Shown here one piece after another: positions 1,961 to 13,595 of a stretch of DNA of 64,000 bases. The position numbers and the translations under genes are program-made. The DNA lies in NCBI GenBank assembly GCA_900551865.1, contig URXV01000001.1, forward strand, positions 94,743 to 158,742, written 5' to 3'. The notes under the pieces are model-generated. The model ran no database searches, was not told where the DNA came from, and saw only the letters and a program-made list of their open reading frames with translations. This stretch comes from an uncultured Rickettsiales bacterium (lineage in GTDB: Bacteria; Pseudomonadota; Alphaproteobacteria; RF32; CAG-239). The first letter of the stretch is position 1; each line of letters starts with the position of its first letter.

Positions 1961-3763
1961 ATGCAGGATTTGGCCAAAATCAGAAATTTTGCGATTATTG
2001 CCCATATTGACCACGGTAAATCGACGATTGCCGACCGTATTATCGAAACCTGCGGCGGACTTGAACGCCGGGAGATGTCGGAACAGGTTTTGGATTCGAT
2101 GGATATTGAGCGCGAACGGGGGATAACGATTAAGGCGCAAACGGTGCGGCTTAAATACAAGGCGCAAGACGGGCAGGAATATCTGTTGAACCTGATTGAT
2201 ACGCCGGGGCATGTGGATTTTTCTTATGAGGTTTCGCGTTCTCTGGCGGCTTGCGAAGGATCGGTTTTGGTTGTGGACGCAACGCAGGGCGTGGAAGCGC
2301 AGACGCTGGCTAACGTTTATCTGGCGATTGACAACAATCATGAGATTGTACCGGCGCTTAATAAGGTGGATTTGCCGTCGGCAGATGTGGAAAAAGTCAA
2401 AGCTCAGATTGAAGACGTTATCGGGATTGATGCAAGCGGTGCGGTGGAAACTTCGGGTAAAACAGGACTGGGAATAAACGAGCTGTTGGAAGCAATCGTG
2501 CATCAGCTGCCGGCACCGCAGGGAGATGTCGGTGCGCCGTTGAAAGCCCTATTGATTGACAGCTGGTATGATTCGTATTTGGGGGTGGTTATCCTTGTCA
2601 GGATTAAAGATGGGACTTTGCGCAAAAAGCAGACTATCCGGATGATGAGCAGCAATGCTGTTTATACGGTTGACCGAATCGGCGTGTTTACGCCTAAAAT
2701 GCAAGAAGTTGAAGAATTGTCCGCCGGGGAAGTCGGCTATATTACCGCCAGCATTAAAAGTGTCGGCGATTGCCGGGTCGGCGATACGATTACGGATAAC
2801 AAGCGTCCTTGCACTGAAGCTCTTTCCGGATTTAAACCTTCTATCCCGGTCGTTTTCTGTTCAATCTTTCCGGTAGACAGCAGCCAATACGAAGCGTTGA
2901 AAGACGCTCTGGCAAAGTTAAAGCTCAATGATGCGAGCATAGACTATCAAAATGAAAATTCCGCAGCGTTGGGACTCGGCTTTCGCTGCGGGTTCCTCGG
3001 ATTGCTGCATATGGAAATCATACAGGAGCGAATCGGGCGCGAGTTTGATTTGGATATTATTACGACGGCACCGTCCGTGGCGTATAAAATCAATTTGACC
3101 AAAGGTGAAACGATAATGCTGCATAATCCGGCGGATATGCCAGACCTGTCGACGGTAGCTTCAATTGAGGAACCGATGGTCAGGGCGACAATTCTGGTGC
3201 CGGACACTTATCTGGGCGCCGTGTTGAAACTTTGCACGGAGCGTCGCGGCGTACAGCAGGAATTGACCTATGTCGGGTCGCGGGCGATGGTTGTGTATCA
3301 GATTCCGCTGAATGAAATCGTGTTTGATTTTTATGACCGGTTGAAATCCATTACGAGCGGATATGCAAGTTTTGACTATGAACTGACAGGGTACGAGCAA
3401 TCAGATTTGGTTAAAGTACAGATTTTAATTAACGAAGAACCTGTTGACGCGCTGGCTTTTTTATGCCACAGAAGCGAGGCGGAATCGAGGGGACGGCAGA
3501 TTTGCGAGCGTTTGAAAGATTTGATTCCAAGGCATTTGTTTAAAATTCCGATACAAGCGGCCATCGGCGGGCGCGTTGTGGCACGGGAGACGATTTCGGC
3601 CATGCGCAAGGATGTTACGGCGAAATGTTATGGCGGCGATGTTACCCGTAAGCGCAAGCTGCTGGACAAGCAGAAGAAAGGCAAGCAAAGAATGCGGCAG
3701 TTTGGCAAGGTGGAAGTGCCGCAGTCGGCATTTATTGAAGCGTTGCGAATCGGCGATGACTAA
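1961..3763 (+). CDS. lepA: Elongation factor 4 (LepA)
   Basis: 600 aa. GTPase G1 motif AHIDHGKST, the DTPGHVDF motif and the conserved LepA C-terminal domain are all present. Confidence 0.97.
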
Positions 3764-6594: not shown

Positions 6595-6641
6595 ACTACA
6601 TCTTGTATATCTTTACGGTTTGTTAATACTATATGTAGTAG
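6595..6641 (+). promoter_or_regulatory. Candidate NrdR boxes upstream of nrdD
   Basis: Imperfect palindrome ACTATATGTAGT at 6628-6639 resembles the NrdR box consensus. A weaker partner ACTACATCTTGTAT lies about 33 bp upstream. Confidence 0.35.
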
Positions 6642-6701: not shown

Positions 6702-8762
6702 ATGGCAAATAACGAGTTGCAGATGCCGACGGCAAAAAAATATAAAATGCCGTTTAAAAGCATAACAAAAAGAGACGGAACCCTCGCTGATTTTGACGGC
6801 GATAAAATTTATAATGCAATATTGCGGGCCGGCGAGATTACTTCTGAATTTGACGGCGACGATGCGTGGCTTCTGACAGCTCAGGTGATGAAAATTTTAT
6901 CACACAAGTTTGACGAATCCCTGCCTTCGGTAGAAGATATTCAGGACGTTGTCGAACAGGTGCTTATTTCTTCCAACTATTTTAAGACGGCGAAATCCTA
7001 TATTCTGTATCGCGATAAGAGAAACAGAATGCGCGGCGACGGCAAAACCGTTATTGACGTGGAAAGCTCCATTAACGAATATCTGGAAAATCTGGACTGG
7101 AGAATTAAGGAGAATGCAAATCAGGGGTATTCCAACGGCGGATTGATTTTAAACGTTTCCGGCAAGGTTACGGCCAACTACTGGCTGTCGCACGTTTATC
7201 CGGCGGAAGTCGGCGAAGCACACAGAAACGGCGATATTCATATTCACGATTTAAGCATGCTGGCGGCATACTGTGCCGGCTGGTCACTGAAAAACCTGCT
7301 GCGCGAGGGATTTAACGGCGTGCCGGGAAAAGTTGAGGCCGGGGCTCCGAAGCATTTGTCTTCCGCCGTCGGGCAGATGGTAAACTTTATGGGAACGCTG
7401 CAGAATGAATGGGCCGGAGCGCAGGCTTTTTCTTCGGTCGATACGTATCTGGCTCCTTATGTTCGGAATGACAAGCTGACATACGAACAGGTTGAACAGA
7501 GCATGCAGGAGCTGATTTACAACCTGAACGTTCCGTCCCGCTGGGGCTCGCAGACTCCGTTTACGAACTTTACTTTCGACTGGGTCTGCCCGGAAGATTT
7601 GCGCGATCAGCACCCGATTATTGCCGGCGTGGAACAGGATTATACCTACGGCGATTTGGGCGAGGAAATGGCGATGATTAACAAAGCCTATATCAATGTT
7701 ATGATGGGCGGCGATGTTAAAGGGCGGCCGTTTACGTTTCCGATTCCGACCTACAATATGACGTGGGATTTTCCGTGGGAAGACGAGAATACGGAATTGC
7801 TGTTTGAGATGACGGCCAAGTACGGTTTGCCTTATTTTCAGAATTTCCTGAATTCGTCGTTGAAACCGGGACAGATTCGTTCGATGTGCTGCCGTTTGCA
7901 GCTGGATTTGAGAGAGTTGTTGGCCAGAGGAAACGGATTGTTCGGGTCGGCCGAGCAGACGGGGTCGGTTGGCGTGGTTACGATTAACTGCGCGCGACTC
8001 GGGTATGTTTACAAAGGCAATGAAGCAGGGTTGTTTGCTCGGGTTGACGAGCTGATGAACATTGCGCGCTCTTCGCTGGAAATCAAACGTAAGGTTATTC
8101 AGCGGTTAATTGATAACGGGCTGTTTCCGTTTACCAAAAGGTATCTGGGCACGTTGCGCAATCACTTCTCGACCATCGGTGTCAACGGTATGAACGAGAT
8201 GATTCGGAACTTTACCAATGACGAGCATAACATTGCCGATACATGGGGACAGGCGTTTGCCGAGAAATTTCTGGATTTCGTCCGCGACAGGCTGGTGAAA
8301 TTTCAGGAAGAAACCGGGCATATGTATAATCTGGAGGCGACTCCGGCGGAAGGGGCGACGACCAGATTTGCAAGAGAAGACAAAAAGCGTTATATCGGCA
8401 TTATTCAGGCCGGTACGCCCGATGCCCCGTTTTATACGAATTCTTCACAGCTTCCGGTCGGTTATACCGATGATCCGTTTGAAGCGCTGGATTTGCAGGC
8501 GCGCCTGCAGTCCAAATATACCGGCGGTACGGTGCTTCACCTTTATATGAACCAGCGTATTTCGTCCGCAAAAGTTTGTCGTGATTTCATCAAGAAGGTT
8601 CTGGCAAATTACCGCCTTCCGTATATCACGATTACTCCGACGTTTTCCGTATGTCCGAAACACGGTTATATTGCCGGGGAACATGAGTTCTGTCCGATTT
8701 GCGATCAGGAAAAGAAGGCAGAAAAGTTAAAAATGCTTGCAAAAAAGCAAGAAGTAGCGTAG
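6702..8762 (+). CDS. nrdD: Anaerobic ribonucleoside-triphosphate reductase NrdD (class III RNR), terminated by an in-frame TAG before the glycyl-radical motif
   Basis: N-terminal ATP-cone (ITKRDGTLADFDGDKIYNAILRA), NrdD catalytic body, and a C-terminal Cys segment CPKHGY...FCPICDQ. It ends at TAG 8760-8762. Confidence 0.9.
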   Translation: MANNELQMPTAKKYKMPFKSITKRDGTLADFDGDKIYNAILRAGEITSEFDGDDAWLLTAQVMKILSHKFDESLPSVEDIQDVVEQVLISSNYFKTAKSYILYRDKRNRMRGDGKTVIDVESSINEYLENLDWRIKENANQGYSNGGLILNVSGKVTANYWLSHVYPAEVGEAHRNGDIHIHDLSMLAAYCAGWSLKNLLREGFNGVPGKVEAGAPKHLSSAVGQMVNFMGTLQNEWAGAQAFSSVDTYLAPYVRNDKLTYEQVEQSMQELIYNLNVPSRWGSQTPFTNFTFDWVCPEDLRDQHPIIAGVEQDYTYGDLGEEMAMINKAYINVMMGGDVKGRPFTFPIPTYNMTWDFPWEDENTELLFEMTAKYGLPYFQNFLNSSLKPGQIRSMCCRLQLDLRELLARGNGLFGSAEQTGSVGVVTINCARLGYVYKGNEAGLFARVDELMNIARSSLEIKRKVIQRLIDNGLFPFTKRYLGTLRNHFSTIGVNGMNEMIRNFTNDEHNIADTWGQAFAEKFLDFVRDRLVKFQEETGHMYNLEATPAEGATTRFAREDKKRYIGIIQAGTPDAPFYTNSSQLPVGYTDDPFEALDLQARLQSKYTGGTVLHLYMNQRISSAKVCRDFIKKVLANYRLPYITITPTFSVCPKHGYIAGEHEFCPICDQEKKAEKLKMLAKKQEVA

Positions 8763-8789
8763 AATATTATATTAGTGAAAGGGAGAAAG

Positions 8790-9020
8790 ATGAGCAATAT
8801 TATTAATATTGATGATGTTAAATTAGACGATTCTGAAAGACAGCGTTGCGAAGTCTATACCAGAGTTATGGGATATATCCGCCCGACGACAGAATTTAAT
8901 GTCGGCAAGAAAGGCGAATATAAGTCCCGCTTGTGTTTCTGCGAAGAGAAGGCCGTTATGGGATGCGAAGCCCGTGAATGCGTCTGCAGAGACAATACGA
9001 TGGCTTTGGCTGCTGAATAA
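8790..9020 (+). CDS. Small ORF encoding the NrdD glycyl-radical module, in frame with nrdD
   Basis: TRVMGYIRPTTEFNVGKKGEYKSR matches the class III RNR glycyl-radical signature. The RBS AAAGGGAGAAAG precedes ATG 8790. It lies 9 codons downstream of the nrdD TAG in the same frame. Confidence 0.6.
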   Translation: MSNIINIDDVKLDDSERQRCEVYTRVMGYIRPTTEFNVGKKGEYKSRLCFCEEKAVMGCEARECVCRDNTMALAAE

Positions 9021-9055: not shown

Positions 9056-9760
9056 TTGATGAATGCTATTAGAATCGGCGGTATTGAGAAATTCAGTATC
9101 GTCGATTTTCCTAACCGGATGTCTGCTGTTGTCTTTATGCAGGGGTGTCCGTGGCGTTGTCCTTTCTGTCATAATACGCATCTTCAGGATGTGAATGCCG
9201 AGACGAATATCGTCTGGCAGAAGTTTACGGATTTCCTTGAGCAAAGAAAGGGAATGCTTGATGCTGTGGTTTTTTCCGGCGGAGAACCTTTGGTTCAAGA
9301 TACCCTGGGGGCGGCAATGGACGAGGTGAAAGCTTTGGGATATCTGGTCGGGCTGCATACCGGAGGATATCGTCCGGCACGCTTTAAGGAGGTTCTTGCC
9401 AAGACCGACTGGGTCGGATTTGACATTAAAGCACCGTTGGAGGCCGAGCGGTATAAAGAGGTTACCGGGGGAATCGCAGATGTGGAGAAGGTTCGGGAAA
9501 GCCTGCATCTGCTGATTGATTCCGGGGTGCCGTTTGAGTGCCGGACGACTTGCGACCCGCGTTTTCTTTCGGTTAAAGATATTTATACGATTGCAGATAC
9601 TTTGAAGGGGCTTGGCGTTAAGGAGTATTATCTGCAAAAATACCGAAAAGTTCCTTCCGATACGGATACGACGGAGAGTCAATGCCTGGCATTGGTGGAA
9701 GACTCTGCGCTGCTGGCATATTTACAGGGATGCTTTGACGTTTTTGATGTGCGAAAATAA
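9056..9760 (+). CDS. nrdG: Anaerobic RNR activating protein NrdG (radical SAM)
   Basis: Radical-SAM cluster motif CPWRCPFCHN. It sits immediately downstream of nrdD. Confidence 0.9.
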   Translation: MMNAIRIGGIEKFSIVDFPNRMSAVVFMQGCPWRCPFCHNTHLQDVNAETNIVWQKFTDFLEQRKGMLDAVVFSGGEPLVQDTLGAAMDEVKALGYLVGLHTGGYRPARFKEVLAKTDWVGFDIKAPLEAERYKEVTGGIADVEKVRESLHLLIDSGVPFECRTTCDPRFLSVKDIYTIADTLKGLGVKEYYLQKYRKVPSDTDTTESQCLALVEDSALLAYLQGCFDVFDVRK

Positions 9761-9821: not shown

Positions 9822-9859
9822 AACGCTGCCGGAGGGGTAATTCGGCAGCGTTATTTTTT
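9822..9859 (+). terminator. Rho-independent terminator after nrdG
   Basis: AACGCTGCCG / loop / CGGCAGCGTT followed by TTATTTTTT. Confidence 0.7.

Positions 9860-11117: not shown

Positions 11118-13595
<2,478 letters not shown>

Follow-up and report, generated by a model that had tools for sequence, protein, structure and literature searches.

We describe here a class III (anaerobic) ribonucleotide reductase (RNR), NrdD, whose catalytic body and glycyl-radical loop are encoded by two separate genes. The locus lies in a 64,000-nucleotide (nt) stretch of DNA, hereafter the window, of an uncultured Rickettsiales bacterium of the lineage CAG-239 (assembly GCA_900551865.1, contig URXV01000001.1, positions 94,743 to 158,742 of the forward strand). 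An open reading frame (ORF) of 686 amino acids (aa), the large chain of NrdD (6702..8762), is followed on the same, forward strand by an ORF of 76 aa, the small chain (8790..9020), which carries the glycyl-radical signature, and by nrdG (9059..9760), which encodes the radical S-adenosylmethionine (SAM) activase of class III RNR, of the NrdG2 type. Class III RNR is a textbook glycyl-radical enzyme with the radical loop in the catalytic chain and, to our knowledge, every class III enzyme solved or described so far has this Gly loop at the C-terminal end of its catalytic polypeptide. The locus reported here very probably encodes a class III RNR made of two separately translated chains, together with its activase, in one operon. 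The initial annotation of this DNA had described nrdD as cut by an in-frame TAG and had left three options for the radical-bearing domain, namely (a) a stand-alone small subunit made from an internal ribosome-binding site (RBS), by analogy with GrcA/YfiD, (b) a domain joined to NrdD by stop-codon readthrough, or (c) the result of a recent nonsense mutation or sequencing error. Our analysis indicates that the TAG is instead an old and conserved gene boundary, with about 36 extra residues around it.

Two chains encoded at the nrdD locus

Searches against Pfam and NCBIfam identified an ATP-cone (aa 20-108) and the NRDD domain in the large ORF, which matches PF13597 with an E value of 8e-177 and NF006126 with 1108.8 bits (cut-off 548) over model positions 3-653 of 684. 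The finger loop SMCCRL (aa 394-399, nt 7881-7898) lies within the catalytic barrel; finger loops of the MCCR type have been described and are compatible with formate or thioredoxin as reductant (PMC9669993). Towards the C-terminus, a predicted Zn ribbon (C651-P-K-H654...C664-P-I-C667, nt 8652-8702) aligns with the CxxxHx6CxxC motif of the Thermotoga maritima NrdD (PMC4493059), and is followed by a basic tail of 19 aa with a net charge of +2 (DQEKKAEKLKMLAKKQEVA, nt 8703-8759), after which the ORF ends at TAG 8760-8762. The ATP-cone, the catalytic body, the C-terminal Cys segment and the stop at this TAG had all been noticed in the initial annotation and are confirmed. The feature by which the NrdD family is otherwise recognised, a C-terminal glycyl-radical loop on the same polypeptide, is absent from the large chain and from its counterparts in 80 of 80 related species loci; indeed, the alignment of the T. 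maritima NrdD with the large chain stops just short of the Gly621 loop. Among 15 diverse split large chains the mean column identity is 75%, with SMCCRL and the Zn ligands invariant.

The loop is found on the 76-aa ORF (ATG 8790, stop TAA 9018-9020), which bears the glycyl-radical signature RCEVYTRVMGYIRPTTEFNVGKKGEYKSR with Gly28 encoded by nt 8871-8873. The small ORF corresponds to positions 649-681 of NF006126, against 3-653 for the large one, which sets the cut exactly at the transition from Zn ribbon to Gly loop. In the Pfam search the small ORF matched NRDD only and gave no match to Gly_radical (PF01228), and no Pfam or NCBIfam model dedicated to the small protein was matched; public databases label it 'hypothetical protein' or, by default, 'anaerobic ribonucleoside-triphosphate reductase'. 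The chain starts with an acidic head (MSNIINIDDVKLDDSERQ, aa 1-19, net charge -3), continues with the hairpin region ERQRCEVYTRVMG28YIRP...NVGKK, a helix and a Cys cluster, and ends in ...ALAAE. The radical-loop residues are invariant across 127 small-chain homologues (the invariant positions being E21, R25, V26, M27, G28, Y29, P32, N37, G39, K40, E43 and R47), and C20 and C49 are nearly universal. The ratio of nonsynonymous to synonymous substitution rates (dN/dS) of the small ORF against 16 relatives is 0.04-0.15, head region included, and by this measure the ORF is under strong purifying selection. An AlphaFold2 (AF2) model based on the 127-sequence alignment, of moderate quality with a mean predicted local distance difference test (pLDDT) score of 70, contains a beta-hairpin (23-26/29-32) with Gly28 at its tip, which is the shape expected of a radical finger. 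Because the large chain has no loop at all, the small chain is predicted to be an obligate subunit and not a spare.

Both the radical signature and the Cys cluster of the 76-aa ORF had been pointed out before and hold. The cluster, CFC..C..CVC, consists of C49, C51, C59, C65 and C67 (nt 8934-8990) and is kept only in the closest relatives. Many other small-chain lineages end in CxC or CC, some large-chain tails end in CxxC or CC, and alphaproteobacterial small chains share a conserved ...AAE terminus. A glutaredoxin/NrdH-like domain follows the Gly loop in eight fused relatives (P0161, P0166, P0190, P0208, P0218, P0231, P0241 and P0251), and for this reason a redox or metal role of the Cys cluster and of the CxC/CC ends is conceivable.

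The two ORFs are separated by an AT-rich spacer of 27 nt (8763..8789), which holds a Shine-Dalgarno (SD)-like site, GAAAGGGAG, at 8777-8785, in agreement with the proposal that ATG 8790, nine codons after the TAG, has its own RBS. These nine in-frame codons (NIILVKGRK) contain no second stop. A GTG at 8775, in frame five codons before ATG 8790 (giving MKGRK-MSNII), sits within the SD-like site, and an equivalent upstream ATG is used by some gene callers in relatives, with products of 80-82 aa; ATG 8790 is likely the actual start, since distant relatives begin at the same position. As also stated initially, TAG is a true stop elsewhere in the window, where it ends 8 of the 35 long ORFs, among them gyrB (11154-13595), and nrdG is intact, its product matching TIGR02495 (E value of 7e-59), Radical_SAM and Fer4_12.

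No terminator was found between the large and the small ORF, and no Rfam element in the nrdD junction region. The sole terminator of the operon comes after nrdG, where an intrinsic-terminator-like hairpin of 12 pairs followed by a T run (9822..9852, forward strand) closes the three genes. Upstream of nrdD, on the same strand, there are two palindromic boxes (6595-6608, ACTACATCTTGTAT; 6626-6641, ATACTATATGTAGTAG) with about 32 bp between their centres. Both are kept in 11 relatives, in which the flanking DNA has diverged, and we take them to be candidate tandem NrdR operator sites, since they look similar to the NrdR-box consensus.

Conservation and recurrence of the split

The 76-aa protein occurs in identical form in 10,111 indexed blocks of public assemblies, and in each of the ten independent assemblies inspected (human-gut metagenomes and one NCBI metagenome-assembled genome, MAG) the 686-aa ORF is succeeded by the 76-aa ORF and nrdG. 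An uncultured alphaproteobacterium of the gut, whose MAG was deposited under the name 'Acetobacter sp. 46_36', has a large chain 100% identical to the query (L041). At one locus (L003 2914-4970, GCA_037071425.1) the large ORF matches as two overlapping pieces and no gene was called; this break probably reflects a frameshift of that one assembly and has nothing to do with the conserved split. More widely, when one genome per GTDB species was scanned, the large chain serving as query, 80 loci with 68-100% identity were recovered, and every one of them consists of a loop-less large ORF, then a separate 57-78-aa ORF with a [ST]R[VA]MGY loop, then nrdG, which was directly downstream of the small ORF in 90 of 90 loci checked. 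The carriers are gut and rumen Alphaproteobacteria, Omnitrophota, Coriobacteriia (Coriobacteriaceae/Atopobiaceae), Burkholderiales including the cultured Dakarella massiliensis, a Methylophaga MAG and others. In the Methylophaga MAG (L077), tandem small ORFs of 57 and 60 aa (~3130-3303 and 3367-3549) stand between the large ORF and nrdG.

The junction between the two ORFs is variable in everything except the start of the second one. Across the 80 loci the gap ranges from -4 to 269 nt, the frame offsets 0, 1 and 2 are all present, and the stop of the large ORF is TAA, TAG or TGA, while an SD-like site and an ATG precede the small ORF in nearly all loci. In the closest relatives the spacer measures 25-36 nt and TAG alternates with TAA, yet GAAAGGGAG-N4-ATG is kept. 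The locus L010, whose proteins are identical to those of the query, has a TAA stop, strains with 98% identity are at offset +1, and close relatives of the query are also found at +1 or +2. Because frame, gap and stop vary while the SD-like site and the ATG are kept, the in-frame relation of the two ORFs in this strain appears to be a coincidence, and readthrough, option (b), is excluded as a conserved mechanism. The initial annotation had proposed to look in related genomes for conservation of the split and of the TAG: the split is conserved in all 80 loci, and the TAG itself alternates with TAA and TGA. It had also considered that uniformly fused orthologues without a conserved RBS/ATG would point to a simple mutation or error, and we observed the reverse on both counts.

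The split is also frequent among more remote NrdD proteins. With a profile of the small chain we found at least 8,000 matching 90%-identity clusters, the best 120 of which are all 62-102 aa long. When the large chain was run with HMMER against 1.84 billion cluster representatives, 7,661 matches were obtained; the top 150 of these, sorted by their C-terminus, comprise about 79 proteins without a Gly loop, about 56 fused ones and 16 fragments (the loop-less share, counted over 50%-cluster representatives, is about 79 of 135). Many of the NrdD relatives (P0147-P0296) are 800-1900 aa long and match in two to five separate stretches, indicating multiple inteins. In a neighbour-joining (NJ) tree of 134 representatives, the clade of the query itself (about 29 members) is split with one fused exception, and elsewhere split and fused forms interleave; the tree implies at least 20 changes of state, a figure that we do not claim as a count of events since the tree was built on intein-laden and partly covered sequences.

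Other lineages were examined, as an independent test, by searching metagenome contigs with a profile built on the C-termini of 'CPYPHTEE'-type NrdDs. Of the usable loci, 78 in number, 30 have the split, the small Gly-loop ORF being located 43-241 nt downstream, whereas the loop is fused in 43 and no loop ORF is present in 4. As 30 of the 78 loci are split, and as the split loci show several unrelated types of tail and head, the split is recurrent within the class III RNRs of the MCCR type. In one of these types (L118, L131, L139, L152 and L153) both the large-chain tail and the small-chain head are coiled-coil-like; the small chain has a long C-terminal extension and measures at least 64 aa, and 181-207 aa in four of the five loci; L170 is the fused counterpart of the coiled-coil type, with a long linker.

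The tail and the head distinguish split from fused enzymes. In fused relatives the last Zn ligand and the loop are about 6-10 residues apart (CPxCGxxxEVYSRVVGY), and the approximately 36 additional residues of split forms, that is the large-chain tail plus the small-chain head, are absent. Over 94 distinct pairs, with kinship ignored, the charges of tail and head are anticorrelated (r = -0.42), basic tails going with acidic heads and vice versa, and the query locus, with +2 and -3, follows this rule. A role of tail and head as an electrostatic or coiled-coil docking module would fit these sequence features.

These observations matter for annotation, as thousands of 'hypothetical' proteins of 57-100 aa would be an essential radical subunit and genes for a loop-less 'NrdD' are no pseudogenes. 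If a full-length NrdD is demanded in a survey, many of the MCCR-type enzymes will be overlooked or wrongly judged. Their carriers include abundant human-gut Alphaproteobacteria and Sutterellaceae.

Phage-borne small genes and the proposed mechanism

IMG/VR was scanned with the small-chain profile, and 351 stretches were found to encode a relative. We examined the best 80 loci, reading 10 kb on either side: in 73 of them the small ORF has neither an NrdD large chain nor NrdG within that distance. The phage small ORFs are about 53-125 aa long, have all loop residues intact and often combine an alphaproteobacterial head with the ...AAE end. Their neighbours encode integrase, DNA polymerase, primase/helicase, DNA helicase, endolysin, tape-measure protein and HNH endonuclease, and the small genes themselves sit beside the integrase or inside replication and lysis modules. 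Examples of stand-alone phage genes (within L171-L326) are L278 9908-10165, L265 10001-10156 and L255 10001-10186. With the large-chain profile only 80 viral stretches were recovered from IMG/VR, and only six contigs are common to this set and the small-chain set; the phage NrdDs from the large-chain scan comprise 44 fused and 12 split forms. The phage signal is limited to the metagenomic contigs of IMG/VR, no stand-alone small ORF having been found in GenBank phage isolates. Phage T4 encodes Y06I, a GrcA-like spare part for pyruvate formate-lyase (PFL) (PMC8683613). Because phages carry the small gene alone, in parallel to Y06I of T4, our data argue that the small chain may work in trans with the large chain of the host, and such genes suggest a new way for phages to manipulate the nucleotide supply of their hosts.

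In the mechanism that we propose, NrdG would abstract a hydrogen of Gly28 on the small chain and form the glycyl radical there, by extension from what is known of NrdD and of PFL/GrcA. The small-chain hairpin would then insert in the barrel of the large chain beside Cys396/397 of SMCCRL, the large-chain tail and the small-chain head would aid the docking of the two chains, and catalysis after docking would proceed as in a single-chain NrdD. Oxygen cleaves a glycyl-radical protein at the glycine. As this glycine is here on a separate small chain, replacement after damage by O2 could be cheap, the cell renewing a piece of 8.6 kDa and not an enzyme of 78 kDa. By the same analogy the radical-bearing chain is probably exchangeable, and a radical chain that can be supplied in trans would explain the phages with the small gene only. 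Cheap replacement of the oxygen-cleavable piece, together with supply in trans, may be the advantage of the arrangement, a view that we put forward tentatively. Less likely than not is an extended version in which the small chain would be a diffusible and consumable 'radical cartridge', charged by NrdG while free, docked reversibly on the loop-less large chain by way of tail and head, and swapped after damage by oxygen or radicals, and in which phages would supply the cartridge gene of 50-100 aa alone, so boosting or restoring the anaerobic synthesis of deoxyribonucleoside triphosphates by the host during infection. If true, an RNR would for the first time be seen to have a radical subunit that serves as a spare part or is supplied in trans, and phages would have an auxiliary metabolic gene of a new kind.

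Several observations weigh against a two-chain enzyme with an exchangeable radical subunit. A search of the small-chain model against the folds of the PDB gave no significant match, YfiD (6owr) appearing at E = 7, and the small-chain profile found a chance match only among PDB sequences. AF2 applied to an artificial fusion, with 37 large homologues of 82-86% identity, produced a model with a mean pLDDT of 48, which is unusable. The Omnitrophota pairs do not follow the charge anticorrelation between tail and head. Among the phages, L283 and L284 have a large gene about 2.9 kb from the small gene, and distant large genes are possible on other phages too, while the benefit of exchange and repair is drawn by analogy with GrcA. 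Finally, the search for a second, fused nrdD was confined to this window of the genome.

This last point leaves room for an alternative in which the small protein would be a GrcA-like spare for a fused NrdD encoded elsewhere, the 686-aa ORF being a non-functional remnant, and the phages that carry the small gene alone, as T4 does with its GrcA homologue Y06I (PMC8683613), speak for it as well. We regard it as improbable, given the high conservation of the loop-less large chain, which in every case directly precedes the small ORF and nrdG, and given that a remnant would not keep its finger-loop, Zn-ribbon and ATP-cone residues invariant across phyla. Of option (a), what stands is the stand-alone subunit made from its own RBS; the analogy with GrcA is only partial, as the large chain has no loop of its own. 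The small protein might also be a regulator or decoy, titrating NrdG for example, and phage copies might in principle inhibit; this we consider more improbable still, as host and phage copies alike keep every residue of the radical loop, the Gly among them, without variation and the large chain has no other radical site.

Explanations that would join the two ORFs, or dismiss the boundary between them, have even less in their favour. Readthrough or recoding at TAG 8760 would yield a single NrdD of 772 aa, and in this genome both ORFs are indeed in the same frame with no further stop between them, but the offsets, gaps and stops of the relatives described above, the SD-like site and ATG that are conserved instead, the ordinary use of TAG as a stop in the window and the lack of an Rfam element in the region leave it a very slight probability. 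We would rate no higher a joining of the chains after translation by a split intein (trans-splicing) or another ligation. NrdD relatives are rich in inteins, but a HINT fold needs far more than a 19-aa tail plus a head of about 19 aa, the tail does not begin with Cys/Ser, the head does not close with His-Asn ahead of a nucleophile, Pfam detects no intein domain, and tails and heads are wholly different between lineages. As for a recent nonsense mutation, a sequencing error or a decaying pseudogene, the interrupted look of the gene is all that suggests it, apart from the separate frameshift in the large ORF of L003; the thousands of identical copies, the split in each assembly and species locus inspected, the low dN/dS, the conserved large chain with its invariant catalytic residues and the intact nrdG exclude option (c), to which we attach a practically negligible probability.

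In summary, the two-chain RNR with its activase is the reading that we retain for this locus. A natural and widespread two-chain form would allow loop and barrel to be handled apart, in activation, titration, exchange after damage and structures with and without the loop, and touches two open questions, namely by what route the buried loop gets out of the barrel and reaches the activase, and how its irreversible cleavage by O2 is dealt with in cells.

Comparison with known systems

The two-chain enzyme belongs to the same family as the canonical class III NrdD with NrdG of phage T4, Escherichia coli, T. maritima and Prevotella copri (PDB 1h78, 4coi/4u3e, 8p23). It shares with them the ATP-cone, the barrel, the MCCR/SCCR-type finger loop (as in T. 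maritima), the Zn ribbon, the RVxGY...N.GK sequence and the adjacent activase (PMC4493059, PMC9669993), and differs from them in that the Gly loop is a separate gene product and in the added tail and head of about 19 aa each. In the searchable literature and in reviews of RNRs and glycyl-radical enzymes, we found neither a split NrdD nor a stand-alone glycyl-radical protein of the NrdD type described; the Stubbe-lab papers on NrdD2/NrdD3 and RNRdb were outside the scope of this search, and an earlier notice is possible there.

The nrdD gene is also in pieces in phage T4, which has an nrdD intron, in Lactococcus phage 949 and in Clostridium phage c-st (PMC3653736). Unlike these cases of introns, inteins and homing endonucleases, in which the pieces are spliced together or decaying, the locus described here appears to encode two conserved and independently translated proteins.

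Two systems come closest, GrcA/YfiD and the class II RNR NrdJa/NrdJb, which is split as well. Like GrcA/YfiD and Y06I of T4, the small chain is a small autonomous glycyl-radical-loop protein, presumably charged by an activase and inserted in a large barrel (PMC8683613, PMC13450708), and phage-encoded copies are common to both. In contrast, GrcA is homologous to the C-terminus of PFL (PF01228), whereas the small chain matches NRDD only, and GrcA rescues a PFL that has its own loop, whereas the large chain described here has none. A 2026 review on glycyl-radical enzymes states that, outside the formate lyases, no spare-part proteins are known. With NrdJa/NrdJb of Pseudomonas aeruginosa and of Thermus phage phiYS40 the locus shares the organisation in two adjacent genes, with a C-terminal module on the smaller, second chain (PMC9669993, PMC5704485, PMC3653736), and in a survey of RNR extensions from 2022 split domains were seen as distinct to class II. 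NrdJa/NrdJb is, however, an adenosylcobalamin (AdoCbl) enzyme without a glycyl radical, and NrdJb is a Cys-rich reduction and oligomerisation domain of 150-220 aa and not a radical carrier, the part that we predict for the small chain of the split NrdD.

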